Assembly: GCA_035549955.1 (NCBI GenBank)
Contig: DASZPS010000071.1
Coordinates: forward strand, 2,840-66,839
Length of the DNA stretch: 64,000 nt
Source: Lacunisphaera sp.
GTDB taxonomy: Bacteria; Verrucomicrobiota; Verrucomicrobiia; Opitutales; Opitutaceae
Direction of reading: 5' to 3'
In this document: positions 477 to 24,880 of the stretch, piece after piece
How positions within the stretch are numbered: position 1 is the first letter of the stretch
Layout: the number at the start of each line of letters is the position of its first letter
Position numbers and translations under genes: made by a program
The notes under the pieces: model-generated
Seen by the model: the letters and a program-made list of their open reading frames with translations, nothing else
The model's database searches: none
Told to the model about the DNA's origin: nothing

Positions 477-501
477 ATGGCGCTTCGCAAGAAATGCGCA
501 G
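477..501. promoter_or_regulatory. 25-nt motif ATGGC-N6-CAAGAAATGCGCAG shared with the ccoS/cbb3 upstream region
   Basis: It matches 18734-18758 at 18 of 25 positions with no gap. It lies 65 nt upstream of the nirK ATG. Confidence 0.35.
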
Positions 502-565
502 CCTCCGCCAACCCCGGCGAGGTCTGCCCGCCCCCTTTTCCGATAACCTTTAACCAGAATCCTAC

Positions 566-4769: not shown

Positions 4770-5132
4770 ATGCCCGCCGCCCTCCTTTCAGCCGACCAGG
4801 CTGGCGTCTGCTCCCTGCAGATGCCGACCTCGCCCGTCGCCCATGGCATCATCAGCCAGGCGGTGGTCACCGCGCCCGGCTTGCGCGTAACCCTGTTTCG
4901 CTTTGCCGCGGGCCAGGAACTTTCCGAACACACCACGCCCGCGCGCGCCCTCGTGCAGGTCCTGGCCGGGACATGTGAATTCACCCTGCCTGGCCGTGGC
5001 CAGCGCCTGGTCGCCGGTGACCTCCTGCACCTGCCGCCGGGCCTGCCGCACGCCGTGCGGGCGCTCGAAGACTTGACCCTTCTCATTACCCAAGCCACGC
5101 CGCCGCCCGCGGCCGACTCGACCCGCCCATGA
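4770..5132 (+). CDS. Cupin domain protein
   Basis: 120 aa with cupin-type motifs (GQELSEHTTPARALVQVLAGTCEF...GDLLHLPPGLPHAVRA). Its stop overlaps the next gene start (ATGA at 5129-5132). Confidence 0.7.
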   Translation: MPAALLSADQAGVCSLQMPTSPVAHGIISQAVVTAPGLRVTLFRFAAGQELSEHTTPARALVQVLAGTCEFTLPGRGQRLVAGDLLHLPPGLPHAVRALEDLTLLITQATPPPAADSTRP

Positions 5133-6620: not shown

Positions 6621-7340
6621 ATGCCGACCTCCCCGCGGCCCGCCGAACTCAAGCTCACCGGACTCGCCAGCTCGCTGCGCTGCTGCCAGTTGTTCACCGG
6701 CCTGTCGACCGAGGACCTGGCGGCCATTGCCGGATTCACGCAGGTGGCGCGGCTGGCGAAGGGCGATTATCTTTTCCACGAAGGTGCGCCCTCGCTCGGC
6801 TTCTACGTCGTCCAGACGGGGGCGGTTAACGTCCACCGGGTGAGCGCCGCGGGCAAGGAGCAGGTGATCCATGTGTTCCGGGCGGGTGAGTCATTCGCCG
6901 AGGCCGCGCTGGCCTCGCCGACGGGCTATCCGGCCAACGCCCGGGCGGTGGAACCGTCCACGATCCTGCTCATCCCGAAGGCGCCGGTGCTGGAACTCAT
7001 TGGCCGGCGGCCGGACCTCGCGCTGCGCATGCTCGGTTCCATGAGCGCGCATCTCCGGGTGCTCGTCGGGGCGCTCGATGACCTCACCCTCAAGGACGTG
7101 GAGACCCGGCTGCTCAACTGGCTGGTGAAGCACGGGCGCCATGCCCGCGGCGGGGACATCCAGTTGCCGGGCACGAAGCGGGTCCTGGCGGCGGAACTCG
7201 GCACGAGCAGCGAGACGCTGTCGCGCACGCTCGCGCGCCTGCGCGATGCGCGGCTCATCACCGTGGCGGCGCGGAGCATCAAGGTCCATGACCAGCCGGC
7301 GATCGAAGGGATGTTGCGCCGGAACCTGGGCGAGGCGTGA
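6621..7340 (+). CDS. Crp/Fnr family transcriptional regulator, Dnr/NnrR-like (no FNR Cys cluster)
   Basis: 239 aa. It has a cNMP-binding-like beta-roll (GDYLFHEGAPSLGFYVVQTGAVNV) and a C-terminal HTH with the FNR-type recognition helix ETLSRTLARL. The FNR N-terminal Cx2Cx5C cluster is absent. Confidence 0.85.
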   Translation: MPTSPRPAELKLTGLASSLRCCQLFTGLSTEDLAAIAGFTQVARLAKGDYLFHEGAPSLGFYVVQTGAVNVHRVSAAGKEQVIHVFRAGESFAEAALASPTGYPANARAVEPSTILLIPKAPVLELIGRRPDLALRMLGSMSAHLRVLVGALDDLTLKDVETRLLNWLVKHGRHARGGDIQLPGTKRVLAAELGTSSETLSRTLARLRDARLITVAARSIKVHDQPAIEGMLRRNLGEA

Positions 7341-7414: not shown

Positions 7415-7428
7415 TTGATCCAGCTCAA
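7415..7428. promoter_or_regulatory. FNR/Dnr-type box TTGAT-CCAG-CTCAA
   Basis: 9 of 10 half-site positions match TTGAT-N4-ATCAA. The box centre is ~40 nt upstream of the RIC ATG (7462). TAGAGT at 7451-7456 is a possible -10, which would imply a very short or absent leader. Confidence 0.55.
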
Positions 7429-7461: not shown

Positions 7462-8190
7462 ATGGACACCTTGATCCCGCTTGAAATCACGCCAGAAACC
7501 CGCGTGGGCGACATTGTTGCCGCCTGTCCCGGACTGGCGCGCCTGTTTGAAGAACTGCGCATCGACTATTGTTGTGGCGGCAAGCAGACCTTGGCCGCGG
7601 CATGCGCCAGCCGCGGGCTCGCCCCGGCCACTGTCGTGGCCCAGCTGGAGGCGACGGCCGCCGCGCTGCAGGCCGGCCCGGCGGAGGTGGACCCGGCGCG
7701 GATGTCGCTCACCGAACTCGCCGACCACATCGAAAGCACGCACCACGCGTATTTGAAGGATGAGCTTCCGCGCCTGGTGGAAATGGCCGGGCGCGTCGCC
7801 GCCAAGCACGGGCATCGCGACGGCCGCCTGCTCGAAGTGGATGTCACGGTACGCGCGCTCGCCGAGGAGATGCTCTGCCACATGAACAAGGAGGAACTCA
7901 TACTCTTTCCGTTGGTGCGACAGATCGATGCCGGCCACCTCGGCGGACTGGCGGGCTCCATTGCCGATCCGATCCACCAAATGGAGGCCGAGCACGACGA
8001 CGCCGGGCGCGCCATCGAGCGGTTGCGGCAGCTGACGGGCGGATTCGTCCCGGCGTCGGACGACTGCAACACGCACCGCGCGCTGCTTGACGGCCTGGCC
8101 CGGTTCGAGGCGGACCTCCACCGCCACGTGCACAAGGAAAACAACGTCCTGTTTCCCCGCGCGCTGACGCTGGTGCTGGACGGGCGTTGA
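7462..8190 (+). CDS. ytfE: Iron-sulfur cluster repair di-iron protein (RIC; YtfE/ScdA/DnrN family)
   Basis: It has the N-terminal ScdA_N motif (FEELRIDYCCGG). Hemerythrin-like His/Glu motifs are present (HHAYLKDELP, EELILFP, HQMEAEHDD, HVHKENNVLFP). Confidence 0.9.
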   Translation: MDTLIPLEITPETRVGDIVAACPGLARLFEELRIDYCCGGKQTLAAACASRGLAPATVVAQLEATAAALQAGPAEVDPARMSLTELADHIESTHHAYLKDELPRLVEMAGRVAAKHGHRDGRLLEVDVTVRALAEEMLCHMNKEELILFPLVRQIDAGHLGGLAGSIADPIHQMEAEHDDAGRAIERLRQLTGGFVPASDDCNTHRALLDGLARFEADLHRHVHKENNVLFPRALTLVLDGR

Positions 8191-8206
8191 GAGGGGAAAA
8201 TGCCGG

Positions 8207-8251
8207 TAGGGGCGCAGTCTTGCTGCGCCCATTCCGCGCGCAGCGCGGAAT
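8207..8251. repeat. REP-like hairpin (family R half-element) plus a second GC hairpin just after the ytfE stop; possible terminator
   Basis: GTAGGGGCGCAG-tcttg-CTGCGCCC (8207-8230) is identical to the reverse complement of 23256-23280. It is followed by ATTCCGCGC-gca-GCGCGGAAT (8231-8251). Confidence 0.6.
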
Positions 8252-8340
8252 CCCCTGGTTCGCACCCGGTACAAATTTCGCCCGGGAACCGCCAATTCCC
8301 GCGCGACCGGCGGGCTCGAAGTGGCTATAATGGAGGCGTC

Positions 8341-8793
8341 ATGAAAACGATCCTCGTACCCCTCGACCTGTCCGCGGCCGCGGTGCAGGTTTGCGACGCG
8401 GCCTGCGACCTGGCGAAACTCATCGGCGCGCGCCCGATCCTGATCCATATCGTCACGACGCCACCGGTCATCCTGAGCGACGTGTATGCGTTCGATTCGC
8501 GGCAGTTGATGGAGCTGGGAGCCGCGGCGGAAAAGAACGCGACGCGCAAGCTCCGGGCGTTGGCGCGGCGTTGCGCCAAGCGCGGCGCGCGGGTCACCAC
8601 GGTGCAACGCGCCGGGGTGCCGGCGACCGCGATCCTCGCCAAGGCCCGGTCCACGCGAGCCCGGTACATCGTCATGGGCTCCCATGGCCACGGCGCGATG
8701 TACGACCTGCTTGTCGGCAGCACCACCCATGGCGTCTTGAAACAGGCACCCTGCCCGGTGGTCATCGTGCCACCGCTGCGTCGTTCGCGCTGA
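8341..8793 (+). CDS. Universal stress protein (UspA family)
   Basis: It has MKTILVPLDLS at the N-terminus and the Usp signature GSHGHGAMYDLLVGSTTHGVLKQAPCPVVIV at the C-terminus. GGAGG lies 5 nt upstream of the ATG. Confidence 0.9.
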   Translation: MKTILVPLDLSAAAVQVCDAACDLAKLIGARPILIHIVTTPPVILSDVYAFDSRQLMELGAAAEKNATRKLRALARRCAKRGARVTTVQRAGVPATAILAKARSTRARYIVMGSHGHGAMYDLLVGSTTHGVLKQAPCPVVIVPPLRRSR

Positions 8794-9283: not shown

Positions 9284-10249
9284 TCAGGCCGCCGCCAGGC
9301 GCGCGCGCGTGGGCGCGCGATCCAGCGAGCTGTGGACCCGGTCGCGGTAGGCCGAGGGGGACTCGCCCGTGATGCGGTGGAACATGCGGTTGAACTGCGA
9401 CAGGGACTGGAAGCCGGCCTCGTAGGCGGCTTCGCTGACCCGCTTGTACGGATCGAGGAGGAGCTGCTTCACCGCTTCGACGCGCATGCGGGAGAGGTAG
9501 TTGGTGAAGGTGAGGCCGGTGCCCTTCTTGAAGTTCTTGCAGAAGTAGAAGGAACTCATCCCGACCGCGCGCGATACCTGATGCAGCGTGAGGTCCTCGC
9601 CGAGGTGCTCGGCGATGAAGGCGCGGGCGCGGCTGATCGCCGGCGCTTCGGTCTGGGCCTGGCGGACCATCAGCTGGTTGCTGAGGGAGGAGAGCTGCTG
9701 GGCGAAGATCTGGAGAAGCTGGAGGATGGAATCGTACTGGTGGCGGCGGATCACGCGGGATTCGCGATAGGCGGCCTCGAGCTGGGCCTGGTCGGCGCCG
9801 GCGTCGATCTCGGCGGCCTGGCGGGCAGCCTTGCGGGCCTCGGCGGTCGTGGCCGGGTTGAAGAGTACCTGGCCGGTTTGGAGATAGGCCACGACCTGGT
9901 CGCCGAGGCGCACCGGCACGGCGGACTCGTGGAGCCCGGCGAAGCAGGCCGACGTGCCGGCGCCGGCGCAGGAGCTGGACTCGAGGCGCTGCTGCATGTT
10001 GAGGCAGGCGGCGCAGGTCTTGTTGCGGGCGGCGATCAGGGCACAGAAGGCGTTGCCGCCCTTGACCCCGGAGAGGCCGCTTTGGAAGGCCCCCGCGGCG
10101 CGGAGGACGAGGGGAAGACCGGTCAGGGCTTGGAAGGCGCGCTGATAGTCGCGGAAGATCTCGGAAGACTGGATGTGGGCGACGAGTTCGTTGCGCTCAC
10201 GCAGCGAGGTCTCGTTGGCTTCTGGAGTTGGGGTGGTCGTGGTTTCCAT
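9284..10249 (-). CDS. AraC-family transcriptional regulator with N-terminal PocR-like sensory domain (paralog 1)
   Basis: The N-terminal half carries a Cys-rich PocR-type pattern (FCALIAARNKTCAACL...CFAGLHESAVPVRLG). The C-terminal half is an AraC HTH (FYFCKNFKKGTGLTFTNYL...ISEAAYEAGFQSLSQFNRMF). It is clearly paralogous to 17180-18097. The start was chosen at the second ATG (10249) by alignment with that paralog. Confidence 0.85.
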   Translation of the reverse strand: METTTTPTPEANETSLRERNELVAHIQSSEIFRDYQRAFQALTGLPLVLRAAGAFQSGLSGVKGGNAFCALIAARNKTCAACLNMQQRLESSSCAGAGTSACFAGLHESAVPVRLGDQVVAYLQTGQVLFNPATTAEARKAARQAAEIDAGADQAQLEAAYRESRVIRRHQYDSILQLLQIFAQQLSSLSNQLMVRQAQTEAPAISRARAFIAEHLGEDLTLHQVSRAVGMSSFYFCKNFKKGTGLTFTNYLSRMRVEAVKQLLLDPYKRVSEAAYEAGFQSLSQFNRMFHRITGESPSAYRDRVHSSLDRAPTRARLAAA

Positions 10250-10482
10250 GGCGCCAGAGTAGCAGGACGCGGGTGTTCGCGTAATTGGCAGGACAGCCAT
10301 ATCCGCCTAGGGAATTCCTTTAGCTGGGTCCGTGGATAGCTGGCAGCGCCGGGTAGGGCAGCGGCGTGGCTTGACCCCACCCGGGCGCGGCCAAGACGCG
10401 CGCCGGCGTTCGACCGAACTTCCCCTCACCCAGCTGCACCCGGGCTTGCCCCGTCCACACCATCTGTTACCAGTGCAAGCCC

Positions 10483-11721
10483 ATGACTGTGCCCAGTTAC
10501 GACAATCTGTCCCGGGAGGAGCTGGTGGAGCGATTGCGTGCCTTGGAACGACCGGATTCCCACGAAACGGAACAGCGCCTGAGCGACACGCTGGACGAGC
10601 TCCGGAACGTCAAGGCCGCGCTGGACGAACACTCCATTGTGGCGATCACGGACGCCTCCGGTCGCATCACCTCGGTTAATGACAAATTTTGCGCGATCTC
10701 GCAGTATGCCCGCGAGGAATTGATCGGGCAGGACCACCGCATCATCAACTCGGGGCACCATTCGAAGGAGTTTTTCCGCACCCTCTGGGGCACGATCGCG
10801 CGGGGGCGCGTCTGGCAGGGAGAAATCCGCAATCGGGCCAAGGACGGAAGCTTCTACTGGGTCGACACCACGATCTTTCCCTTCGTCAACGCCGCCGGCA
10901 AGCCGACCCAGTACGTCGCGATCCGCACCGACATCACGCAGCGCAAGGCCGACGAGCTCCAGCTGCAGCAGTTCGCGTCCGACCTGGCGGAGAAGAACAA
11001 GGAGCTGGAGACGATCGTATACACGGTGTCGCACGATTTGCGCTCGCCCCTGGTCAACGTGCAGGGCTTCAGCCGGCAGTTGAGCCGGGCCTGCGACCGG
11101 CTGCGCCAGGAGGCGGGCGCTGACGGGCAGATCCCGGCCCTCACGGCCAAGCCGGTGCTCGAGCAGGCCATCCCGCAGGCGCTGCGCTTCATCAACGCCG
11201 GTGTCGCCAAGATGGAAATGTTGCTGAACGGCCTGCTCCGGTATTCGCGCCTGGGCCGCGTCGAGCTGAACATCGCGCGCATCGACATGAACGCGCTGCT
11301 CGGCGGGGTCCTCGCCGCCGCCAAATTCCAGCTCGACGAATCCGGCGCGGAGGTCGAACTGGGCCCGCTCCCGCCGGCTCGCGGCGACGCCGCCCAGACG
11401 AGCCAGGTTTTCGCGAACCTGGTCGACAACGCGCTCAAGTACCGCGATCGCGAACGGCCGCTGCGGCTGTCGATCTCCGGCACCGTCGAGGACGGCAAGG
11501 CCGTTTACCGCGTCGCCGACAACGGCATCGGCATCCCGGCGGAACACCAGCCGAAGATCTTCGAAATCTTCCACCGGCTCGACCCCGACACGACCCCGGG
11601 CGAGGGGCTTGGCCTCACCATCGCCCAGCGCGTGCTCGAGCGGCAGAAGGGCCGCTTGTGGGTCGAGAGCAAGGCGGGCGAGGGCTCGACATTTTTCGTC
11701 GCCCTGCCGTATGCTGGCTGA
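10483..11721 (+). CDS. PAS-domain sensor histidine kinase (cytoplasmic)
   Basis: It has a PAS/PAC region ([21 protein letters not shown]...[14 protein letters not shown]), an H-box (VSHDLRSPL), and N/G boxes ([21 protein letters not shown]). No TM segment is visible. Confidence 0.9.
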
Positions 11722-12181: not shown

Positions 12182-13240
12182 GTGGGCGCCCGTAACACCA
12201 AGCCCAAGGCCTCGCTGCTGGTGGTCGACGACGATGAGGGCCTGCTTGCGCTGATGTCGGGCACGCTCGAGGAGGCAGGCTACGCCGTGCGGGGGGCGGG
12301 CGGCGGCGCCGCCACGTTGAAGGCGATGGACGCGTCCCTGCCGGACCTGCTGCTGCTCGACCTGAAATTAAAGGACATGGGCGGCCGGGAGTTGCTCCGA
12401 CGCCTGCGGGAGGCCGGGCGGAACGTCCCGTTCATCGTCATCACGGGCCAGGGCGACGAAAAGGTCGCGGTCGAGCTGATGCGCGAGGGCGCGCTCGATT
12501 ATGTGAGCAAGGACACCGGTTTGCTGGACCTGCTGCCCAACATCGTCGAGCGCGCGTTTCGCACGATCCAGGCGTCCGCGGCCCTGCAGGCGGAGATTCG
12601 CGAGCGCCGCCGGCTGGAGAAGGAGATCCTCGAGGTCAGCGAGAACGAGCAGCGCCGGATCGGCCAGGACCTGCATGACGGCCTGGGCCAGCAGCTCACG
12701 GCGATTGAATTCATGTGCCAGTCGCTGGTGGGCGACCTGGAAAAATCCAACCCGCAGATTGCCCCGCGCCTCGCGCGGATCGCGGCGTTCCTGCGCGAGG
12801 CCATTTCCCAGACGCGGGCGCTGGCGCACAGCATGGCCAAGTTCCAGCTGGATGCCAACGGGCTGCGCGCCGCACTCGAGGAATTGGTGGAGCAGGCGGG
12901 GCATACCGGTTCGCTCCGCGCCCATTTCGCCTGTCCCGAGGCCATCGTTCTCCCCGACGGCGACGTGGCCCTGCAGCTCTACCGGATCACCCAGGAGGCG
13001 CTGCAGAATGTCATCCGCCACAGCAAGGCGCGGGAGGTAACGGTCTCGGTGCGGCGCGACGCGGCGGGCTTGGAGTTGTTGATCTCGGACAATGGGATCG
13101 GCTATGCCGCCCGGGACTCGGCCGGCATGGGGCTGCGCGTCATGCGGCACCGGGCCAGCGTGGCCGGGGGCAAGCTGGAGGTGGGTCCGGGTCCGAAAGG
13201 CGGCACCGTGGTGCGTTGCCTGCTGCTTCCTGCGCCATGA
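12182..13240 (+). CDS. Receiver-fused histidine kinase (REC + HisKA_3 + HATPase_c; NarX/DegS-type core, no TM)
   Basis: It has an N-terminal receiver (LLVVDDDEG, LLLLDLKLKDMGG), a HisKA_3 H-box (RIGQDLHDGLGQQL), and an ATPase domain (QEALQNVIRHSKA, DNGIGY, GMGLRVMRHRA). A GTG start is inferred. Confidence 0.85.
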   Translation: MGARNTKPKASLLVVDDDEGLLALMSGTLEEAGYAVRGAGGGAATLKAMDASLPDLLLLDLKLKDMGGRELLRRLREAGRNVPFIVITGQGDEKVAVELMREGALDYVSKDTGLLDLLPNIVERAFRTIQASAALQAEIRERRRLEKEILEVSENEQRRIGQDLHDGLGQQLTAIEFMCQSLVGDLEKSNPQIAPRLARIAAFLREAISQTRALAHSMAKFQLDANGLRAALEELVEQAGHTGSLRAHFACPEAIVLPDGDVALQLYRITQEALQNVIRHSKAREVTVSVRRDAAGLELLISDNGIGYAARDSAGMGLRVMRHRASVAGGKLEVGPGPKGGTVVRCLLLPAP

Positions 13241-15700: not shown

Positions 15701-15926
15701 GACGGAAACCGGTGGGCCTGGGGGTTGGTTCACCCTAGCAGGCAGCCCGGGCCCCGCCGTGCGTCCCTTGGCGAAGGTCGGGCGTAATTTGTTACCCATG
15801 AGTCACACCGCCCGGCGTCATCCCCGGGGCGCCGGAGCCGGCCTTTCCGCGACAAGAAGCGAGCCAGATTGGTCAAGTGACGCGCAGAACCGGGCGGAAG
15901 CATGCGCTAGGATTGCGGCCATCTTC

Positions 15927-16358
15927 ATGACACCCACGATCGAGATCCAATACCAGGATTTGCCGTCCTCGCCGGCGCTGACCCTGCTGATTCAGACGGA
16001 GATCGAGCGGCTGGCCCGGCATCATGCCGGACTGCGGCATTGTCGGGTGATGATTGAACGGGCCCACCACCAACCGCGGCCGGACCATCGCATTCACGTG
16101 GCCCTCGCGCTGGTGACGGACGACGGCGAGTTGATCGTCAACCACGAGCCCTCCTCGCGGGCGCCCTTGGTTGACTCCGACCTGCTCCATCCCGGCAAGG
16201 CGGAGGAGTCCCACGGTTCGCCGGGCAATGCTTACAGCACCGTCCGCGACGCCTTTGAGGCGGCGCGCCGCCAGCTGACCGAGCAGCGCCGCCGCCAGCG
16301 CGCGCACCGGCATCGCGACGACGCCGGGGACTTGCCGGCCGCCATCGCGGGAGCCTGA
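15927..16358 (+). CDS. Ribosome hibernation/HPF-YfiA (S30AE) family protein
   Basis: The pattern IEIQYQDLPSSPALTLLIQTEIERLARHH...HVALALVTDDGELIVNHE...AYSTVRDAFEAARRQL follows the short HPF/RaiA layout. Confidence 0.65.
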   Translation: MTPTIEIQYQDLPSSPALTLLIQTEIERLARHHAGLRHCRVMIERAHHQPRPDHRIHVALALVTDDGELIVNHEPSSRAPLVDSDLLHPGKAEESHGSPGNAYSTVRDAFEAARRQLTEQRRRQRAHRHRDDAGDLPAAIAGA

Positions 16359-16476: not shown

Positions 16477-16944
16477 TCAGGCCCCGGCTGGGGAGTCAAC
16501 CGCGGGCGAGGATGGGCCGGATGGCGGGGGGCAGCGATCGGAAGTCCCGCGATACACGCAGGTCGAGCAGAACATTTCGCATTCATGCCGGGCCAGCGCG
16601 TGGAAGCGACGCAGCATTTCCTCGTGGTCGACCTCGGGCTTTTCCCCGAGGGCGTGGCGCAACGCCTGTTCGCCGGCGGCAAAATACCGCTGCATCGGGT
16701 CCAGCCCGCAGGCACAATGGCTGTGCACGGGACCGACCAGTGGCCGGCAGCCTTCCGGCCAATCCGCGGTCGCGTGGCCGGAAAGGCCCCGCAGCAACTG
16801 CATGAGCGTGCCTTCGACCAGAAACCCGACCGTGTCCTGGCGGCCGAGGGCGGAGAGCGGGGGTTCGTCCGCCAGTCGCCGCACCCATTCGAGTTTGATC
16901 GGGGCAAAATGATCGACCAGCGTTCGGCCCAACGCGGAATTCAT
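16477..16944 (-). CDS. Small Cys-pair protein, paralog 2 (uncharacterised family)
   Basis: 155 aa. Conserved blocks are shared with 3781-4227 and 18083-18535 (KLEWVRRL..EPPLSALGRQDTVGFL..TL.QL; HCACGLDPMQRYF..GEQAL; ECEMFCSTCVY). It is divergent from the PocR-AraC gene at 17180. Confidence 0.65.
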   Translation of the reverse strand: MNSALGRTLVDHFAPIKLEWVRRLADEPPLSALGRQDTVGFLVEGTLMQLLRGLSGHATADWPEGCRPLVGPVHSHCACGLDPMQRYFAAGEQALRHALGEKPEVDHEEMLRRFHALARHECEMFCSTCVYRGTSDRCPPPSGPSSPAVDSPAGA

Positions 16945-17179
16945 GCTGCTAATCTTTCATTAATTTGCGCCCGCCGCAGTGCATGAATTGCCATAGGCCG
17001 GTCATTTGTTGCGATGTGGCACGGCGGCGCATTCCGGGGCGTCGGGGGCCGGCCGGTTCCCTGCCGGTGCGATGCACCGCTAGAACTTTTACTGCTGAGG
17101 TGCTGCAGTCCGGCTGGATAACGTCGCGCGGGGCCCGAACGGATTTGCGCTCCCGGTGGGCGGCCGCTTGACTGGCCGC

Positions 17180-18097
17180 ATGGTAAGCCCTGCGGACGAT
17201 GCCAAACGAAGCCGGGAGCTGGTTCACCAACTGCGGGAATCGGAAATCTTTCGCGATTATGAAAAGGCATTCCGCGACACCACGGGCCTGCCGCTGAACC
17301 TCCGGCCGATCGAGGCTTTCGACCTGCCGCATCACGGTGATCCGAACGAGAGTCCCTTTTGCGCGCTCATGGCGAAGACCAACCAGAGCTGCGCCGCCTG
17401 CCTGCAGTTGCAGCGCCGGGTCGAGGAGGAGGCCCGGCTGGAGCCGAAGACGCTGAAATGCTTCGCGGGTCTCTGCGACTCGGCCGTGCCGGTGCGGGTG
17501 GGGGAGAACCTGGTGGCGTTCCTGCAAACCGGCCAGATCCTGTTGCATGAGCCCAGCCGGCAGGAATTCAGGAAGGTCACGCGCGAGCTGATCAACTGGG
17601 GCGTCGATACCGACCTGAAGGGCATGGAAGAGGCGTATTTCCAGACCCGCGTGCTCGACCGGAAGCAGTACGAGGCCGTGCTGCGGCTGCTGATGATTTT
17701 TGCCCGGCACCTGTCCGCGCTCAGCAACGAGCTGATGGTGACGGCGCAGCAGTCCGAGTCCCCGATGATCAGCCGGGCCAAGATCTACATCATGGAGCAC
17801 CAGCACGAGGAGATGTCGCTCCGCCAGGTGGCGGGCTCGGTCAACACCAGCGCCTTTTATTTCTGCAAGATGTTCAAGAAGGCGACGGGCCTGACCTTCA
17901 CCGACTACCTGGCCCGCGTGCGCGTGGAGAAGGTGAAGAACCTGCTGCTCAACCCGCACAAGCGCATCAGCGAGGCCGCCTACGAGGCCGGCTTCCAGTC
18001 CCTTTCCCAATTCAACCGCGTGTTCCGCAAGGTCGCGGGCGAGGCACCCACGGTGTGGCGCGACAAGCTGCCCGGGCGGTCGTCAGCTGCGGTTTGA
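17180..18097 (+). CDS. AraC-family transcriptional regulator with N-terminal PocR-like sensory domain (paralog 2)
   Basis: It carries SEIFRDYEKAFRDTTGLPLNLRP...FCALMAKTNQSCAACLQL...CFAGLCDSAVPVRVG and an AraC HTH (FYFCKMFKKATGLTFTDYL...ISEAAYEAGFQSLSQFNRVF). ATG at 17180 is preferred over GTG at 17156. Confidence 0.85.
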   Translation: MVSPADDAKRSRELVHQLRESEIFRDYEKAFRDTTGLPLNLRPIEAFDLPHHGDPNESPFCALMAKTNQSCAACLQLQRRVEEEARLEPKTLKCFAGLCDSAVPVRVGENLVAFLQTGQILLHEPSRQEFRKVTRELINWGVDTDLKGMEEAYFQTRVLDRKQYEAVLRLLMIFARHLSALSNELMVTAQQSESPMISRAKIYIMEHQHEEMSLRQVAGSVNTSAFYFCKMFKKATGLTFTDYLARVRVEKVKNLLLNPHKRISEAAYEAGFQSLSQFNRVFRKVAGEAPTVWRDKLPGRSSAAV

Positions 18098-18535
18098 CGG
18101 ACCGGGTTTCGGGGCCAGGTCGCAGCAGCCGGGCACGCCCTTGTACTGGCAGACCGAGCACAGGGTCTCGATTTCCTGCTGGGCCAGGGACCGGAACAGC
18201 AGCAGGACGTCCTCGATTTCCTCCCCCACGATCGAGGCCGCCGTGGCGCGCACGGCCAGTTCGCCGGTGGTGTAGTACTTCAGCAACGGATTGAGACCAC
18301 AGGCGCAGTAGGCATGGATCGGGGCGGCCACCGGGGTGCAGCCATGGAGCCAGTTCTGCGCCGACCGGGCGGTGAGCCCGTTGAAAAGCTGGGTCAGCGT
18401 GGCATCCATCAGGAAGACCAGGGTGTCCGGGCGGCCGAGCGGCGTCAGGGCGGGTTCGCCACGCAGCAGCACCGACCACTCCGCCTTGATGGCAGGGCCG
18501 AGCGCCACTAGCTGCTGAAGGGTGGCGGGGGTCAC
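18083..18535 (-). CDS. Small Cys-pair protein, paralog 3 (uncharacterised family)
   Basis: Conserved blocks are IKAEWSVLLRGEPALTPLGRPDTLVFL..TLTQL, YCACGLNPLLKYY..GELAV and EIETLCSVCQY. The GTG start at 18535 was chosen by alignment to paralog 2; the ORF is open up to 18802. The 3' end overlaps the convergent AraC gene by 15 nt. Confidence 0.6.
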   Translation of the reverse strand: MTPATLQQLVALGPAIKAEWSVLLRGEPALTPLGRPDTLVFLMDATLTQLFNGLTARSAQNWLHGCTPVAAPIHAYCACGLNPLLKYYTTGELAVRATAASIVGEEIEDVLLLFRSLAQQEIETLCSVCQYKGVPGCCDLAPKPGPSNRS

Positions 18536-18733
18536 GCGCCCATAATGCCACAGGTGCTCCGCCGCCGCGCCGCAGGTGTTGCTGGGCCGTGCGCATATCT
18601 TGGGCAGGCCCGCCGCGGCGAAGACCGGGGGCGCCGGGGGTGAAGCCCGCGCTCCGCGCGGGCTGAACCTGCGCGGAGCGCAGGTTCCACCCGTCGTGCG
18701 CCCCGGCGCTACGCGGCATTGGACAACGCTCGC

Positions 18734-18758
18734 ATGGCTTGCGCCAAGGAATGCGCAG
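18734..18758. promoter_or_regulatory. 25-nt motif ATGGC-N6-CAAGGAATGCGCAG shared with the nirK upstream region
   Basis: 18 of 25 positions are identical to 477-501, including the contiguous AATGCGCAG. It lies 48 nt upstream of the ccoS ATG. A GATAAT hexamer sits at 18778-18783. Confidence 0.35.
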
Positions 18759-18805
18759 AGCCGCATTCGAAAATCCCGATAATCAGCGCGGACATTCTCC
18801 ACGCC

Positions 18806-19087
18806 ATGTCTGCGATACCACTAACGCTATTCTGCAGCCTGCTGCTAGCCGGCACATTTGTATTTCTCTTCGCGCGCGAACAGCGCCGCCGCTTTGGCAG
18901 CCCCGAGCGCGATTCGCTCCTGCCCCTGGCGGATGAGGTTCCGGTCGAAGGCGGCGGGCGCGTCCCGCAGGTACCACCCGGCCGCGACGAAACCGGCCCC
19001 GACGGTTGCGGCTGCCGCGACGGCGCGCGTCCGCCCTGCGCGGGCTGCCGGAAGCACCTCGGCGCCGCCACCCCTGGCCTGACCTGA
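18806..19087 (+). CDS. ccoS: cbb3 oxidase maturation protein CcoS/FixS-like
   Basis: The N-terminus MSAIPLTLFCSLLLAGTFVFLFAREQRRRFGSPERDSLLPLADE matches the CcoS layout (one TM helix, then F(D/G)..E....L.D). The ORF continues ~45 codons beyond the usual length, so the true stop or extent is uncertain. Confidence 0.6.
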   Translation: MSAIPLTLFCSLLLAGTFVFLFAREQRRRFGSPERDSLLPLADEVPVEGGGRVPQVPPGRDETGPDGCGCRDGARPPCAGCRKHLGAATPGLT

Positions 19088-19111: not shown

Positions 19112-21418
19112 ATGACGAACGGATCCAAGACCACCATCGAATTCAATGACGGCATCGTGCGGCAGTTCCTGCTCGCCGCCGTCCTCTGGGGCATCGTCGG
19201 CATGCTTGTCGGCGTGCTCATCGCCACCCAGCTCAACTTCTGGCAGGCCAACTTCGGCCAGTCCTGGCTGAGCTTCGGGCGCCTCCGTCCGCTCCACACC
19301 AACGCCGTCATCTTTGCCTTTGTCGGCAACATGATGTTCGCCGGCATCTATTACTCGACGCAGCGCCTGGTGAAAGCGCGTCTGGCGAGCGACTTTCTGT
19401 CGAACCTCCACTTCTGGGGCTGGCAGCTCATCATCGTGTCCGCGGCCATCACCCTCCCGCTGGGCCTCACCCGCGGCAAGGAATACGCGGAGCTCATCTG
19501 GCCCATCAACATCGCCGTCGCCTTCATCTGGGTGGTGTTCGCGGTGAACTTCTTCTGGACGCTCGCCCGCCGCAACGAGAAGTCCCTCTACGTCGCCGTC
19601 TGGTTCTACATCGCGACGATCATCACGGTCGCGATGCTCTACATCGTCAACCACCTGTCCATTCCGACTTCGCTGACGCACAGCTACCCGGTGTTCGGTG
19701 GCGTGCAGGATGGCCTGGTCCAGTGGTGGTACGGGCACAACGCCGTGGCGTTTTTCCTGACCACGCCGATTTTGGGCATCATGTACTACTTCCTGCCGAA
19801 GGCGGCGGAGCGGCCGGTCTACTCGTACCGGCTGTCGGTGGTCCACTTCTGGTCGCTGGTGTTCCTCTACATCTGGGCCGGCCCGCACCACCTGCTCAAC
19901 ACCGCGCTGCCCGCCTGGCTGCAACTCCTCGGCATGACCTTCTCGCTCATGCTGTGGGCACCGTCGTGGGGCGGCATGCTCAACGGCCTGCTCACGCTCC
20001 GCGGCGCCTGGGGCAAACTCCGGACCGACCCGGTCATCAAGTTCTTCGCCGCCGGCGTCACGTACTACGGCATGGCGACGTTTGAGGGCCCCCTGCTCTC
20101 GATCCGCTCCGTCAACGCGCTCGCGCACTACACCGACTGGATCATCGGGCACGTCCACGCCGGCGCGCTGGGGTGGAACGGCTTCATGGCGGCCGGCATG
20201 TTCTATTGGCTGGTCCCGCGCCTGTGGAACAAGCCCCTTTACTCCCAGTCGCTCGCCAACCTGCACTTCTGGATCGGGATGTTCGGCATCCTGCTTTACG
20301 TCGCGGCCATGTGGGCCTCGGGCATCGGCCAGGGCCTGATGCTCAACGCCACCGCCGAAAGCGGCACCATCCTGAAGTACCCGAACTTCCTGGAGACGGT
20401 GAATTCGATCCGGCCGCTCATGCTTCTCCGCGTGGTCGGGGGCGCGCTCTACCTGACCGGCTTCGTGCTCATGGCTTACAACATCCTCCGCAGCATCCGC
20501 GGCGCCAAGACCGTGAATGGCACGATCGAGGTCCATGTCGAGGCGCCCGCTGCGGACGAGCAGCTCGGGGCCGGGGCCACGATCTTCAACGCCCCGGTCG
20601 TGTTCTGCACGCTGGGCTTCATCGCCGCCTGCGTGTGGATGTTCGCGGATGGCTGGCTGAACCTATTCGGCCTGGTCGCGACGATCTTCTGCGTGCTGCT
20701 GGCCATCGGCCACTTCCAGTCGCGCGGCAAGGCCTGGGGCGACTGGTACGACAAGCTCCTCCTGAACGCCCTGCCGTTCACGGTCCTCACCTTCCTGTCC
20801 GTGGCCGTCGGCGGGCTCATCCAGATCATCCCGATGCTGACGATCGAGCGCCGGCTGCAGACCGAGGACCGCGTGGCGAAGGTCTACACGCCGCTCGAAC
20901 TGGCCGGCCGCGACCTCTATGTCCGCGAAGGTTGCTACACCTGCCACTCGCAGATGATCCGCACGCTGGTGCCGGACGTCATGCGCTACGGCGACTACTC
21001 GCGCCTCGGCGAATCCATCTGGGACCATCCCTACCAGTGGGGTTCGAAGCGCAACGGGCCCGACCTTGCCCGCGTCGGGGGCAAATATAACGACGCCTGG
21101 CATTTCGACCATATGCGCGACCCGCGGGCCATTTCGACGGGTTCCAACATGCCGGCCTACTACTGGCTGCACGAAAACAACACCGATTACGCGGCCCTCC
21201 CGGCGAAGATCCGCGTGCAGCGCACGCTCGGCGTCCCGTTTCCCAACTGGTCGCCGGCCGAAATCGATGCGCTCGCGAAAGTCCAGGCGAAACAAATCGC
21301 CCGGGACCTGCGCGACCAGGGCCGCTACACCGACGCCGACAAGGAGATCGTGGCCCTCACCGCTTACCTGCAGTCGCTGGGCAAGAAGTGGGAGGCGACG
21401 GGCACCGCTGCGCGGTGA
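19112..21418 (+). CDS. ccoNO: cbb3-type cytochrome c oxidase, fused subunits I and II (CcoN-CcoO)
   Basis: 768 aa. The N-terminal ~470 aa are haem-copper oxidase subunit I (HTNAVIFAFVGN, WYGHNAVAFFLT, HFWSLVFLYIWAGPHH, GHVHAGALGWNG). The C-terminal part is CcoO (CYTCHSQMIR, WGSKRNGPDLARVGGKY, HFDHMRDPR). Confidence 0.93.
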   Translation: MTNGSKTTIEFNDGIVRQFLLAAVLWGIVGMLVGVLIATQLNFWQANFGQSWLSFGRLRPLHTNAVIFAFVGNMMFAGIYYSTQRLVKARLASDFLSNLHFWGWQLIIVSAAITLPLGLTRGKEYAELIWPINIAVAFIWVVFAVNFFWTLARRNEKSLYVAVWFYIATIITVAMLYIVNHLSIPTSLTHSYPVFGGVQDGLVQWWYGHNAVAFFLTTPILGIMYYFLPKAAERPVYSYRLSVVHFWSLVFLYIWAGPHHLLNTALPAWLQLLGMTFSLMLWAPSWGGMLNGLLTLRGAWGKLRTDPVIKFFAAGVTYYGMATFEGPLLSIRSVNALAHYTDWIIGHVHAGALGWNGFMAAGMFYWLVPRLWNKPLYSQSLANLHFWIGMFGILLYVAAMWASGIGQGLMLNATAESGTILKYPNFLETVNSIRPLMLLRVVGGALYLTGFVLMAYNILRSIRGAKTVNGTIEVHVEAPAADEQLGAGATIFNAPVVFCTLGFIAACVWMFADGWLNLFGLVATIFCVLLAIGHFQSRGKAWGDWYDKLLLNALPFTVLTFLSVAVGGLIQIIPMLTIERRLQTEDRVAKVYTPLELAGRDLYVREGCYTCHSQMIRTLVPDVMRYGDYSRLGESIWDHPYQWGSKRNGPDLARVGGKYNDAWHFDHMRDPRAISTGSNMPAYYWLHENNTDYAALPAKIRVQRTLGVPFPNWSPAEIDALAKVQAKQIARDLRDQGRYTDADKEIVALTAYLQSLGKKWEATGTAAR

Positions 21419-21731: not shown

Positions 21732-22322
21732 ATGAATTCCACTCCCACCCAACCGCCGACCAGCGATCCAGATATTCCGGTCCGTCCGCACACTTACGAC
21801 GGCATCCAGGAATACGACCAGCGCCTGCCGAACTGGTGGCTCTACACGCTCTACGGGACCATCGCCTTCTGGGCCGTATTCTGGTTCGCCTACATGATCG
21901 CCCGGGTGCCGGCCACCAACGAGGCGCTCGTGGAGTCCCGCATGGCCGAGATCGCCGCCGTCAAGCTCGCGACCTCGCTCGACGTGACCAACGACGCGCT
22001 CTTCTGGGAAATGAGCCGCAACCCGGTGTTCGTCGACGCAGGCAAGCAGACTTTCAACTCCCTTTGCGTCGCCTGTCACCTGCCGACGCTTCGGGGCAAG
22101 AGCGAGAATCCCGCGGCCGTCGGGCCGGACCTGACGGACCAGTCCTGGATTCACGGGGGCACCCCGAAGGAGGTTTACGCCACGGTTTCAAAGGGCGTGC
22201 TCGCCAAGGGCATGCCGACCTGGGAACCGGTGCTTGGCCAGAAGAAGACCGCCGAGGTCGTCGCCTACGTCCTGTCCCATCACCAAAAGGGTGAGCCGGT
22301 GACGGTGGAGGTCCCCAAGTGA
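21732..22322 (+). CDS. ccoP: cbb3 oxidase subunit III (CcoP/FixP), apparently mono-haem
   Basis: It has the FixP N-terminal motif (HTYDGIQEYDQRLPNWW) plus a TM helix. Only one CxxCH is visible (CVACH). Confidence 0.85.
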   Translation: MNSTPTQPPTSDPDIPVRPHTYDGIQEYDQRLPNWWLYTLYGTIAFWAVFWFAYMIARVPATNEALVESRMAEIAAVKLATSLDVTNDALFWEMSRNPVFVDAGKQTFNSLCVACHLPTLRGKSENPAAVGPDLTDQSWIHGGTPKEVYATVSKGVLAKGMPTWEPVLGQKKTAEVVAYVLSHHQKGEPVTVEVPK

Positions 22323-23947
22323 AATCAACCGGGGTCCTTGACCCCGGGCCGGACCCAGCGACGCCGGCTGCCACCCGCCCGCTCGAACCACGCATGGGCA
22401 ACGAACTGACAGTCCCACCCAAGGCCGAAAATCCCAAGGCGAAAGCGGCGAAGGCCCGGCGGCCCTCGCTTGAGTCCGTCACGACCATCGCGGCCGACGG
22501 ATCGCGGCGCGATTTGCATCCTTCGGACGTGCGCGGGCCGTTCATGTCGGCCCGGCGCTGGAGCGGGTGGGGCCTCATTGCCTTCTACCTGGTGCTCCCG
22601 TGGATCCCCGTGAACGGCTATCCCGCGGTGTTTCTGGACATCGCCGAGGGACGGTTCCACTTCTTCGGCTACACGCTGGCGCCCCAGGACACCTGGCTGC
22701 TGTTCTTCGCGGTCTCCGGGCTCGGCTTCACGCTGTTCTTTGTCACGGCGCTCATTGGCCGCGTGTGGTGCGGCTGGGCCTGCCCCCAGACCGTGTACCT
22801 CGAGCACGTTTACCGCGTGATCGAGCGCTGGGTCGACGGCGACGGGCCGGCGCGGCGGGCGCTGGCGGCCGCACCCCTCACGGCCGCCAAGGCGGCCCGG
22901 CGCGTGGCCAAGCACAGCCTCTACGTCGTGGCCTCGTTGCTGATAACGCACCTTTTCCTGAGCTATTTCGTGAGCCTGCCGGAGGTTTGGCACATGATGC
23001 GCTCGGCGCCGCGGGAACATTGGGCGCCCTTTGTCTTCGTCTTCGCCAGTGCCGGTCTGCTCTACTTCAACTTCGCCTGGTTCCGCGAGCAGCTGTGCAT
23101 CATGATTTGTCCCTACGGCCGGCTGCAGTCGGCGCTGACGGACGATCATTCCGTGGTGATCGGCTACGACGCGAAGCGGGGCGAGCCGCGGGGCAGGATT
23201 CATCGCGAGGTAGGGGCGCAGTTTCGCTGCGCCCAAGGAGCAACGAAGTCCGAAAGGGCGCAGCAAGACTGCGCCCCTACCACCGAGGCGCTTGGCGCTT
23301 GCATCGATTGCAGCCGTTGCGTGCAAGTCTGCCCCACGGGCATCGACATCCGCCAGGGCCTGCAACTCGAATGCATCGGTTGCGCCGCCTGCATCGATGC
23401 GTGCGACGAGGTCATGACGCGCGTCGGGCGGCCGAAGGGTCTGATCCGCTACGATTCGCTGGCGCGTTTCGCCGGCGGGCGCACGCGGTGGATCCGGCCG
23501 CGCACGATCGTCTATTTTGTCCTGCTGCTGGTGGGCGTGGCGGTCGCAACCTTCGCCTTTTCGCGGGTCAAGCCGGCCAGCTTCCTCGTCTACCGCATGA
23601 CCGGCGCCGCCTATTTCGTGGACCGGAACGACGTGCGCAACCAGTTCATGGTTCGCCTCGTGAACAAGCTTTCCCGTCCGGCCGAGCTCGCGGTCGCTAC
23701 CACCGGCGTGCCGGCGGGCGTGAAGCTGACGGGATTCGACGCGCCGGTGATCATCCCGGCGCTGGGCGAGCAGGTCAGCCCGCTGGTGCTGACCGTCGAC
23801 CGCAAGACTTACGCCGGGCCGTTCCACTTCACCGTCGTGGTGCGGGATACCGCCGGCACGTACCAACTGTCCCGGGCCGTCGAGTTCATGGGCCCGGAAC
23901 CGAAGCTGCTCGAGGAGGAGGATCGTGAAAACGGCATCAAGCGTTGA
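22319..23947 (+). CDS. ccoG: cbb3 oxidase accessory protein CcoG (membrane 4Fe-4S ferredoxin)
   Basis: It carries WCGWACPQT and two ferredoxin Cys motifs (CIDCSRCVQVCPTGIDIRQG, CIGCAACIDACDEVM), followed by a C-terminal beta domain. GTG at 22319 overlaps the ccoP stop; ATG at 22394 is an alternative start. A REP-like insert lies at 23210-23280. Confidence 0.9.
   Translation: MKSTGVLDPGPDPATPAATRPLEPRMGNELTVPPKAENPKAKAAKARRPSLESVTTIAADGSRRDLHPSDVRGPFMSARRWSGWGLIAFYLVLPWIPVNGYPAVFLDIAEGRFHFFGYTLAPQDTWLLFFAVSGLGFTLFFVTALIGRVWCGWACPQTVYLEHVYRVIERWVDGDGPARRALAAAPLTAAKAARRVAKHSLYVVASLLITHLFLSYFVSLPEVWHMMRSAPREHWAPFVFVFASAGLLYFNFAWFREQLCIMICPYGRLQSALTDDHSVVIGYDAKRGEPRGRIHREVGAQFRCAQGATKSERAQQDCAPTTEALGACIDCSRCVQVCPTGIDIRQGLQLECIGCAACIDACDEVMTRVGRPKGLIRYDSLARFAGGRTRWIRPRTIVYFVLLLVGVAVATFAFSRVKPASFLVYRMTGAAYFVDRNDVRNQFMVRLVNKLSRPAELAVATTGVPAGVKLTGFDAPVIIPALGEQVSPLVLTVDRKTYAGPFHFTVVVRDTAGTYQLSRAVEFMGPEPKLLEEEDRENGIKR
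23210..23280. repeat. REP-like hairpin-pair element (family R) inside the ccoG reading frame
   Basis: The element reads GTAGGGGCGCAG-tttcg-CTGCGCCC ... GGGCGCAG-caaga-CTGCGCCCCTAC. It is translated in frame as ~EVGAQFRCAQGATKSERAQQDCAPTT, in the linker between the RGEPRG and CIDC motifs. Confidence 0.8.
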
Positions 23948-24182
23948 GGGGATGCCCGCCGATCCATGTAGGGTTGCCGCTTGCGGCGACCTGGGGGAAT
24001 CGCATGCGAGGTCGGCGCAAGCGCCGACCCTACAAAAGGCGACTGGCGCGACGTGGTCCCTCTGGGTTTGGGTCCTCGCCGGCTTCCTGTTGTTGGTCGC
24101 GGCTTGGGGCGCGATGTTCACCGCGGCCCATGCCGCGAAAGTCGAATCGGTGCCGCTGGCAACCAAGGGGGCCCAGCCATGA
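23925..24182 (+). CDS. Small single-TM protein downstream of ccoG (FixH-position; start uncertain)
   Basis: It has a TM helix (WSLWVWVLAGFLLLVAAWGAMF). Its stop overlaps the next ATG (ATGA at 24179-24182). The only in-frame ATG (23925) places a REP element (23967-24034) inside the N-terminus. Confidence 0.4.
   Translation: MKTASSVEGMPADPCRVAACGDLGESHARSAQAPTLQKATGATWSLWVWVLAGFLLLVAAWGAMFTAAHAAKVESVPLATKGAQP
23967..24034. repeat. REP-like hairpin-pair element (family R)
   Basis: TGTAGGGTTGCCGC-ttgc-GGCGACC ... GGTCGGCGC-aa-GCGCCGACCCTACA. The terminal arms TGTAGGGT/ACCCTACA are inverted. Confidence 0.8.
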
Positions 24183-24880
24183 CGGCCGAACTTTCCGCCA
24201 TCACCGGGCCCGGCACGGCCCTCCTTGCGGGGCTCGTGACCAGCCTGCATTGCGTCGGCATGTGCGGCCCGCTGGCCTGTGCACTGATGCCGGCGCGGGC
24301 GGGTGATGCCGATTCCCACACGGTGAGCACGGTCTATCACCTGTGCCGGCTCGGCGGCTACAGCCTGCTCGGGGCGCTGGCGGGCGGGATTGGCCGCCTG
24401 CCGCTCACGCTGCTCGGCTCGGATGCGCTGCGCTACCTGCCCTGGTTGCTCGTGCTGTTTTTCGTGGCGGTCGCGGTGCGTTTCGACCAGCGCCTGCCCC
24501 GCCTCCCGCTGCTCGGGCGCGCCTATGGTGCGGTGGCGGCGCGGCTCCGCGGCGGTTCTAGGGTGCGGGCGGCCGCGCTGCTCGGCGTGGCCACGCCGCT
24601 GCTGCCCTGCGGCCCACTCTATTTTCTCGTGTCGCTGGCGATGCTATCCGGCTCGGCCCAACGTGGGGCGGAGACCTTGTTCGCGTTCGGCCTCGGGACG
24701 GTGCCGCTGCTCTGGCTCGCCCAGGTGAATTTCCATTTCATCCGCGTACGGCTCGGCCCGGTCTGGCTGGCGCGCACGCAGACCATCCTGGCGCTGGTCG
24801 TGGCGGCGGTCCTCGTGTGGCGGCTGCGCGGGACGCTCGGCTGGGGCGGGCCGGGGGCGGGGGACTTTGTGTGCTTCTGA
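24179..24880 (+). CDS. TauE/SafE-like (COG2836-type) membrane protein with HCxxMCGP motif
   Basis: 233 aa and polytopic. The SLHCVGMCGPLA motif and a second PLLPCGPLY motif are typical of the family found in cbb3/Cu-ATPase clusters. Confidence 0.6.
   Translation: MTAELSAITGPGTALLAGLVTSLHCVGMCGPLACALMPARAGDADSHTVSTVYHLCRLGGYSLLGALAGGIGRLPLTLLGSDALRYLPWLLVLFFVAVAVRFDQRLPRLPLLGRAYGAVAARLRGGSRVRAAALLGVATPLLPCGPLYFLVSLAMLSGSAQRGAETLFAFGLGTVPLLWLAQVNFHFIRVRLGPVWLARTQTILALVVAAVLVWRLRGTLGWGGPGAGDFVCF

Follow-up and report, generated by a model that had tools for sequence, protein, structure and literature searches.

We analyzed a 64,000-nt stretch of DNA from Lacunisphaera sp. (assembly GCA_035549955.1, contig DASZPS010000071.1, positions 2,840 to 66,839; hereafter the window), with emphasis on three open reading frames (ORFs) that encode small proteins with paired cysteines. 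We refer to them as par1 (3781-4227, + strand), par2 (16477-16944, - strand) and par3 (18083-18535, - strand). An earlier inspection of the letters alone, here called the sequence-only reading, had described these ORFs as paralogs of an unnamed family. It had placed them next to AraC-type regulators with a PocR domain and to the operons for the copper nitrite reductase NirK and the cbb3 oxidase, and had proposed that they are metal- or Fe-S-binding sensors, or partners of the regulators, that couple the expression of the two enzymes. All three ORFs are found at the positions and on the strands that it gave. The family to which they belong is embedded in a cbb3/denitrification neighborhood, and its main clade is tied to a gene for a Cys-rich PocR-AraC regulator.

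Three paralogs of a new protein family

The proteins encoded by par1, par2 and par3 comprise 148, 155 and 150 amino acids, respectively, the last from a GTG start. Their similarity over the whole length, originally judged by eye, is upheld by BLASTP, with E values from 6e-39 to 4e-7. The par2 and par3 proteins share 40% identity from end to end (E=6e-39), while par1 is the more distant paralog, with 29% identity to par3 (E=1e-9) and an E value of 4e-7 against par2. The sequence blocks that had been picked out as shared are real and, beyond these three proteins, make up the conserved core of the entire family. Each protein carries two Cys pairs, namely CxC and CxxC in par2 and par3, and CxC and CxC in par1 (C71, C73, C132 and C134), in agreement with the proposed pattern Cx(1-2)C for the second pair. 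The fifth Cys described for par2 and par3 is likewise present, as C66 (par3 numbering, used throughout) in the motif GC.P. It is not a family feature, however: it occurs in 64 of 105 close par3 relatives and is absent in the wider family. Like C137, it is a feature of a subgroup.

A search of the window in all six frames with a hidden Markov model of the family yields exactly three members, par1-3. At 89 other loci searched with the same model there is one member per ±10 kb, so that three copies within 15 kb are unusual. Whereas par3 belongs to an ortholog group linked to cco and PocR-AraC genes, par2 is a lineage-specific paralog with no close ortholog; its best identity, to either of two distant homologs, is 49%. 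The family proteins are soluble, without a transmembrane segment (the maximum 19-residue Kyte-Doolittle value is 1.08), and by eye their N-termini do not resemble signal peptides. They are presumably cytoplasmic.

None of the three proteins matches Pfam-A 2025, NCBIfam 20.0 or PADLOC at E<=1. When 117 members were compared with Pfam, scattered matches were obtained, all with E>=0.0037, and a profile of 55 members found nothing significant among the PDB sequences (best E 0.13). The statement that the proteins belong to no named family thus holds with respect to Pfam, NCBIfam, PADLOC and the PDB, and the profile searches brought up no well-characterized family of unrelated function. A literature search, too, found no paper on this small four-Cys family. 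It is new as a protein family, while the kind of system to which it would likely belong, a small Cys4 metalloprotein paired with a transcription factor in respiratory control, is already known in other forms.

The family is sizable. Among 1.84 billion cluster representatives at 50% identity, an exhaustive hmmsearch retrieved 420 clusters at E<=1e-3, of which 355 remain at E<=1e-10; almost all members are single-domain proteins of 140-200 amino acids. Some long homologs (P0106, P0198 and others) at first seem to be fusions, but their extra length looks like an over-called N-terminus and not like a true domain fusion, and they therefore provide no Rosetta-stone evidence. Word-seeded searches gave 104 homologs for par3, 85 for par1 and the two distant ones for par2, all annotated as hypothetical and without a precomputed Pfam domain. 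Every taxonomically labeled member is from Verrucomicrobiota/Opitutales. Likewise, the best 80 loci from a scan of 185,579 species genomes are all from Opitutaceae or Opitutales, among them the genera Oleiharenicola, Lacunisphaera, Didemnitutus and Opitutus; one isolate, Oleiharenicola sp. Vm1 (locus L030, NZ_CP180537.1), has the locus. The scan patterns favor close relatives, so the restriction to Opitutales is as found so far and does not prove absence elsewhere. Specifically, the broad alignment of 117 sequences was too divergent for scanning genome contigs and a closer alignment, A2, was used instead; the 80 genome loci are biased to the par3 clade, which a metagenome scan with a par1 alignment partly compensates.

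Cysteine site and fold

The conserved core of the family consists of W20, L24, R25, P36, D44, T46, C77, C79, G80, N82, P83, Y87, F88, E121, C126 and C129, of which W20 and L24 are invariant or nearly so. The four cysteines C77, C79, C126 and C129 are each kept in 104-106 of 106 close par3 homologs and in 140-146 of 146 cluster representatives, with a spacing of CxC-x46+-CxxC. Across 454 collected sequences, 320 have CxC plus CxxC, 32 have CxC plus CxC, and 28 have CxC plus one Cys; the par1 type can be written CxC...CxC(xC). About 57 of the 454 have at most one Cys at each position. The expectation that the cysteines are conserved across orthologs is therefore borne out in the main clade and fails in a sub-branch related to par1, made up of these degenerate sequences.

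To locate the two pairs relative to each other, we used mean-field direct coupling analysis (DCA; 409 sequences, Meff 247). The pair C79-C129 ranks second among all couplings and C79-C126 ninth, and both C77-C129 and C77-C126 are within the top 35. The couplings 82-128, 90-125, 92-115, 91-114 and 99-107 form an antiparallel ladder. Together, the ladder and the Cys couplings indicate that the last two helices form a hairpin, with CxC just ahead of the penultimate helix and CxxC (CxC in par1) at the end of the last one. By coevolution, then, the four cysteines are predicted to gather in one tetra-Cys site. The hairpin agrees with the structural model of par1, in which residues 76-96 and 103-129 are separate helices. 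It conflicts with the AlphaFold2 model of par3, in which residues 83-127 form one continuous helix; the proximity of the cysteines rests on the DCA hairpin and the par1 model.

Both models are all-helical. For par3 (predicted local distance difference test, pLDDT, 85.9; predicted template modeling score, pTM, 0.79), the top Foldseek matches are allophycocyanin, phycocyanin and globins, with template modeling (TM) scores of 0.52-0.58 and probabilities up to 1.0, the latter at a TM score of 0.55, but with E>=0.15. The par1 model (pLDDT 82.4) gives weak globin-like and phycocyanin matches, with TM scores of about 0.5 and probabilities <=0.3. Tentatively, the models thus suggest a globin-like fold. 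The phycobiliprotein/globin fold provides the best structural matches of the family, and its size of about 150 amino acids, its all-helical structure and its lack of a conserved His for heme recall the non-heme sensor globins, such as the N-terminal domain of RsbR and pXO1-118. No His that could serve as proximal heme ligand is conserved family-wide, H74 being confined to the par3 subgroup. Weak matches to RsbRD_N (PF14361) were seen in 2 of 117 members (best E 0.055, below the Pfam gathering threshold), and are a lead for remote homology alone. Similarity to the sensor globins is below significance by either measure (Foldseek E about 0.15, Pfam E 0.055); moreover, the family stands alone, with no STAS or kinase fusion, and a tetra-Cys site is alien to those globins.

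Other small thiol proteins resemble the family in mechanism rather than in descent. The C-terminal zinc redox switch of Hsp33 has the arrangement Cys-X-Cys...Cys-X-X-Cys (PMC3184428). The order of CxC and a distant CxxC, four Cys in all, is the same in par2, par3 and most of the family (320/454), and by analogy the family site is plausibly one metal-thiolate center that could release its metal or form disulfides upon oxidation. However, the family has no HSP33 match in Pfam, its fold is all-helical and tentatively globin-like rather than that of the Hsp33 zinc domain, and its two Cys pairs are at least 46 residues apart. The Zn-thiolate anti-sigma factors RsrA and RslA differ in that the family has no ZAS match in Pfam and lacks HxxxCxxC, with Ile or Val four residues before C126, and in that no sigma factor gene adjoins the family in the window or in the loci examined. 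WhiB-like (Wbl) proteins are small, helical, four-Cys transcription cofactors of actinobacteria that sense O2 and nitric oxide (NO) with a [4Fe-4S] cluster and partner with sigma-A. The family is alike in concept, being a small soluble four-Cys protein with no DNA-binding domain of its own that would act through a transcription factor; it differs in having no Whib match in Pfam, another fold, and a spacing of CxC-x46+-CxxC instead of C-x(n)-C-x2-C-x5-C, and it is found in Opitutales, where the partner would be an AraC-type activator. Finally, the HMA/CopZ Cu chaperones have an MxCxxC motif in a ferredoxin-like beta-alpha fold; this fold is absent from both all-helical models, and there is no HMA match.

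Gene neighborhood and operator

The arrangement of genes around the three paralogs is as the sequence-only reading had it. par1 is the last gene of an operon with nirK (566-2092, +; the nitrite reductase has a C-terminal cytochrome c domain), nirV (2125-3048, +; FGE-sulfatase fold) and SCO1/SenC (3045-3767, +; by Pfam), and starts 13 nt after the latter. par2 is divergent from the gene for PocR-AraC 2 (17156-18097, +), with which par3 is convergent, their 3' ends overlapping by 15 nt. On its other side, par3 is divergent from a cco operon that comprises a ccoS-like small membrane ORF (18806-19087, +), a ccoNO fusion (19112-21418, +; CcoN and CcoO in one 768-aa protein) and ccoP (21732-22322, +); ccoG (22319-23947, +) and a DsbD_2 gene (23981-24880, +) follow. 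The label ccoS rests on position and sequence style, with no Pfam match. The second regulator gene, PocR-AraC 1, is also present (9284-10300, -), divergent from a gene for a PAS histidine kinase (10483-11721, +). The NirK-cytochrome c and CcoN-CcoO fusion architectures both recur in related Opitutales loci. The ccoS-like protein has one N-terminal hydrophobic helix, an ERDSLLPLADE motif and a C-terminal end of the form CGC-x8-CAGC; a His/Asp-rich tail followed by CxC-x8-CxxC is seen in 16 of 49 orthologs, and suggests a metal-binding extension on a cbb3 assembly factor.

Both regulators consist of a PocR sensory domain and two AraC helix-turn-helix motifs, with strong matches (PocR E=5e-23 and HTH_18 E=3e-23 for PocR-AraC 1; 4e-25 and 8e-22 for PocR-AraC 2). 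In the PocR domain of PocR-AraC 2, C69, C79, C82, C102 and C107 are kept in 60-65 of 71 orthologs and paralogs, and by eye PocR-AraC 1 has a similar pattern. The five conserved cysteines raise the possibility that the regulator itself senses through thiols or a metal. In the papers searched, PocR is described as a PAS-like domain predicted to sense hydrocarbon derivatives, and nothing further; our search found no description of Cys or Fe-S in PocR domains.

The linkage of the family to PocR-AraC, cco and nirK genes is reproducible in about 160 independent loci, and homologs elsewhere thus keep the company that the sequence-only reading had predicted. A PocR-AraC gene is convergent within 400 nt in 61 of the 69 genome loci with enough downstream sequence (median gap 74 nt, minimum -27), and ccoNO is divergent in 45 of the 64 whose upstream sequence is long enough, separated by a median of 535 nt in which the ccoS-like ORF lies. 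When the contigs of five par3 relatives (35-69% identity) were looked up independently, a PocR-AraC gene was convergent just downstream in 5/5 and a cco operon divergent upstream in 4/5, and about 20 further metagenome loci have the PocR-AraC arrangement. A second locus class has no cco operon: the family gene again faces a convergent PocR-AraC gene, and a Usp gene comes next. Several metagenome-assembled genomes contain both classes, on different contigs.

The par1 clade has other neighbors. Orthologs of par1 follow nirK-nirV-SCO1 and precede genes for NOR-like heme-copper oxidases (L090, L091, L095-L098). The block downstream of the ortholog in these loci consists of two COX1-family genes (NOR-like), a second SCO1 and a cytochrome b/4Fe-4S fusion (8754-12628 in L090 and 9030-12905 in L091); it is absent after par1 in the window, where a DUF2249-like ORF (4460-4693, +) and an NMO-like gene (5129-6565, +) are found instead. 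More distant members of the clade adjoin a small cupin and DUF2249, facing either a cytochrome b/Fer4-SCO1-heme-copper oxidase cluster or nirK-nirV-SCO1; others have a ribonucleotide reductase gene as neighbor and Crp close by. A minority of members have no recognizable respiratory neighbor, for example P0310, which lies among URO-D and sugar genes.

Neighbors and cysteines go together. All 85 classifiable copies with a convergent PocR-AraC neighbor have four Cys. Conversely, none of the 13 copies with a cupin (+DUF2249) neighbor does, eight having three Cys and five being degenerate; copies with other neighbors comprise nine with four Cys, one with three and 14 degenerate. The cupin that consistently adjoins Cys-poor and three-Cys members, together with a DUF2249 gene, is small (about 115 amino acids) and matches AraC_binding/Cupin_2 weakly (6657-7004 in L092 and 7462-7809 in L093; also in L099-L105, L116, L118, L138 and L141). 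Cupin and DUF2249 may be an alternative set of partners for the Cys-poor clade.

Footprinting of the par3-cco intergenic region across 15 genomes revealed two conserved blocks, one ahead of each divergent gene. Their core, CAAGnnnTGCGCA, has exactly three matches in the window, where 0.23 are expected, and 0 of 100 shuffles reached three. All three exact sites are in promoters, namely those of nirK, par3 and ccoS-ccoNO, and each is oriented with its gene. Exactly 21 nt from each there is another, weaker repeat (CAAC/CAAG-n3-KGC), and a -10-like hexamer stands at a matching distance; the two repeats sit at about -67 to -55 and -46 to -34. The nirK operator (488..521, +) has its exact repeat, CAAGAAATGCGCA, at 488-500 and the weaker one, CAACCCCGGCGAG, at 509-521, followed by GATAAC at 542-547; the motif starts 78 nt before the ATG at 566. 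In the par3 promoter (18569..18602, -), the distal repeat CAAGATATGCGCA is at 18602..18590 and the proximal repeat CAACACCTGCGGC at 18581..18569, with a distance of 67 nt from motif start to GTG. The hexamer CATTAT (18547..18542) ends 6 nt before the GTG, which suggests a leaderless or near-leaderless mRNA. The 21-nt register of the par3 promoter is kept in 27 loci. For ccoS-ccoNO (18724..18757, +), the weak repeat CAACGCTCGCATG at 18724-18736 precedes the exact one, CAAGGAATGCGCA, at 18745-18757, which starts 61 nt from the ATG of the ccoS-like ORF, and GATAAT is at 18778-18783. Between the par3 and ccoS promoters lies a perfect 10-bp inverted repeat, GAACCTGCGC-GGA-GCGCAGGTTC (18663-18690), in a stretch that is variable; related loci (L010, L013-L017 and L020) carry an insertion of about 250-300 nt there. 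Generic scans for sigma-70 promoters and terminators added no information.

The family gene is a core carrier of this tandem-repeat operator, in common with the cco operon. Of the 153 family genes compared across about 160 loci, 93 carry CAAGnnnTGCGCA (up to 1 mismatch) within 170 nt upstream, and the distances are quantized at 47-50 or 67-69 nt. The exact motif is ahead of the cco operon in thirteen other loci. The CAAGnnnTGCGCA motif also precedes family genes that have no adjacent PocR-AraC gene (L118, L138, L141, L144, L155, L171 and L172). The par2 promoter has no site at up to 2 mismatches.

FNR, FixK and Anr are known to control ccoNOQP, and Dnr and NnrR to control nirK. The induction of a high-affinity oxidase together with a nitrite reductase is the outcome of those systems and the predicted one here, and Dnr-type boxes do occur here, TTGACCTGGGTCAA (4400-4413, +) before the DUF2249-like ORF and TTGATCCAGCTCAA (7415-7428, +) before the RIC/ScdA gene (7462-8190, +; ScdA_N plus hemerythrin). 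These two boxes point to a separate Dnr-type NO regulon. We considered FNR-box control of cco, par2 and par3 and rejected it, there being no site at up to 2 mismatches in their intergenic regions; family promoters elsewhere have such a box in just 2 of 153 cases. Instead of FNR boxes, the cco operon and the family genes have the tandem CAAGnnnTGCGCA repeats. The local Crp/Fnr-family protein (6621-7340, +) lacks the N-terminal Cys cluster of FNR. A general link between nirK and the operator was also discarded: an FNR/Dnr box is found instead in 6 of 7 other Opitutales nirK promoters, and the wiring of nirK to the operator is thus specific to this genome.

The geometry of the operator is reminiscent of araI1/araI2, where AraC binds tandem half-sites that overlap the -35 region; by analogy, the operator here consists of tandem direct repeats in a 21-bp register, of which the proximal one would overlap the -35. 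Because of this repeat geometry, and because PocR-AraC is the conserved neighbor in both locus classes, it is the best candidate for the protein that binds the operator. The proposed coupling of nirK and cco expression is better explained by the operator that the two share, and hence probably by the AraC-type regulator, than by the small proteins themselves.

Possible functions of the small proteins

The family probably helps to sense or relay redox state. A more definite proposal, which we hold tentatively and at somewhat less than even confidence, is that its members are metal-thiolate proteins, labile to redox change, O2 or NO, and that they modulate the PocR-AraC activator; metal binding, lability and the interaction with PocR-AraC are all inferred. 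The tetra-Cys site would hold a labile metal center, either an Fe-S cluster or Zn-thiolate, whose state would decide whether the small protein binds or modifies the neighboring Cys-rich regulator, as co-sensor, anti-activator or co-activator. The outcome would be feedback on the expression of the cbb3 oxidase and, in this genome, of NirK, where the same operator would drive ccoS-ccoNOP and nirK-nirV-SCO1-par1 as one respiratory regulon. In this scheme, par1 would be an operon-embedded copy that reports on the denitrification branch, and par2 a recent extra copy. Control of AraC-family activators by small partner proteins is known from ExsA-ExsD, InvF-SicA and MxiE-IpgC. Those systems are alike in that the gene for an AraC-type regulator is beside one for a small helical protein; there, however, the partner is a type III secretion chaperone or an anti-activator with no sequence relationship to the family. 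Along with Hsp33 and the WhiB-like proteins, they are analogies of mechanism, not of membership.

Several observations weigh against this proposal. Adjacency to PocR-AraC holds for the par3 clade but does not extend to the family as a whole. Members of the par1 clade have no PocR-AraC neighbor and lie in nirK, NOR, cupin and DUF2249 clusters, and part of the clade has lost the cysteines, so a Cys-dependent partnership cannot account for the family as a whole. The association of four Cys with PocR adjacency may reflect a single split between clades rather than repeated co-variation. In addition, convergent adjacency is not co-transcription, and a gene under the regulator's operator may be no more than one of its targets, and thus an effector. 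The PocR domain may sense the signal alone, with the regulator as the primary sensor. Lastly, the globin-like fold is itself weak, with E 0.15 for par3 and no confident match for par1.

A bolder version of the sensor proposal, which we consider improbable, is that Opitutales control cbb3 in response to O2 or NO through a two-protein sensor instead of FNR/FixK. A globin-like tetra-Cys protein and a five-Cys PocR domain would share or exchange an Fe-S cluster, or form a thiol-disulfide relay, and so switch an activator on tandem CAAGnnnTGCGCA sites. If true, such a pair would represent a new sensor fold, a new use of PocR and a new regulatory logic for a high-affinity oxidase.

If the proteins are effectors instead, they might handle metals in the cytoplasm, by buffering or delivering Cu(I) or by carrying Fe-S clusters, and be made along with cbb3, NirK and NOR-type heme-copper oxidases so as to supply or protect the cofactors of these enzymes. 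CxC and CxxC, both present in the family, are classical ligand motifs for Cu(I) and other metals; the neighbors are rich in Cu enzymes and Cu-handling proteins (NirK, SCO1, CcoG, a CcoI-type ATPase, a cupredoxin); and the operon of par1 includes the maturation-type genes nirV and SCO1. The frequent His/Asp-rich CxC-x8-CxxC tail of the ccoS-like protein fits as well, as does the regulon operator, which the family gene carries like any target. We nevertheless regard metal handling as unlikely. NirK and the targets of SCO1 are presumably metallated in the periplasm, whereas the family is soluble and presumably cytoplasmic, with neither an HMA/CopZ-like fold nor a Pfam match. A whole locus class keeps just PocR-AraC and Usp as neighbors, with no Cu enzyme, and some members without Cys remain in the same clusters as the others. 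Furthermore, assembly of cbb3 and NirK is widespread, while the family has so far been found in Opitutales alone. An effector of another kind, a thiol-rich or Fe-S protein that scavenges NO and reactive oxygen or repairs their damage during microaerobic denitrification, would explain why the family recurs beside RIC, DUF2249, small cupins, Usp and Dnr-type Crp genes, and would suit the predicted co-induction with nirK in this genome through the shared operator. However, the scarcity of FNR/Dnr-type boxes at family promoters, set against their presence at RIC and the DUF2249-like ORF here, indicates that the family genes are wired to a different regulator from the NO-stress genes; the fold also gives no hint of catalysis, and such a protective role seems to us quite unlikely.

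A further reading is that the tetrad binds Zn for purely structural reasons, in a small adaptor that has nothing to do with redox or metals; the synteny would then be no more than gene order inherited within one order. Since the family is known from one order so far, gene order could indeed be partly phylogenetic inertia, and in the Cys-degenerate members the fold persists although the site is gone. On the other hand, synteny is still seen at protein identities as low as 33-40% and spans at least two distinct locus classes, the operator is kept at fixed distances, and retention of the cysteines tracks PocR adjacency, all of which make a purely structural role very unlikely.

What is known of how bacteria regulate microaerobic respiration and denitrification comes almost entirely from Proteobacteria, through FNR, FixLJ-FixK, Dnr/NnrR and NsrR. 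Soils, freshwater and sediments harbor abundant Opitutales, which contribute to nitrogen turnover. The evidence for a conserved, lineage-specific module at their cbb3 locus is strong, and its taxonomic range appears narrow. If the small protein and the regulator are a redox-sensing pair, they would provide a new input route for the control of a high-affinity oxidase and a function of PocR beyond hydrocarbon sensing. Should the family turn out to be an effector, its roughly 420 clusters, annotated as hypothetical proteins, would still have acquired a defined context, a candidate metal site open to testing and a predicted regulon, and the isolate Oleiharenicola sp. Vm1 opens the way to experiments.

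Between the par1 operon and par2, in addition to the genes described above, the window contains genes for a Usp protein (8200-8793, +), a response regulator-kinase hybrid (12182-13240, +) and the ribosome hibernation factor HPF (S30AE/HPF; 15927-16358, +). An operator with one mismatch, CAAGTGACGCGCA, is found at 15874-15886 (+), 53 nt before the ATG of the HPF gene (15927), which may be a further member of the regulon.

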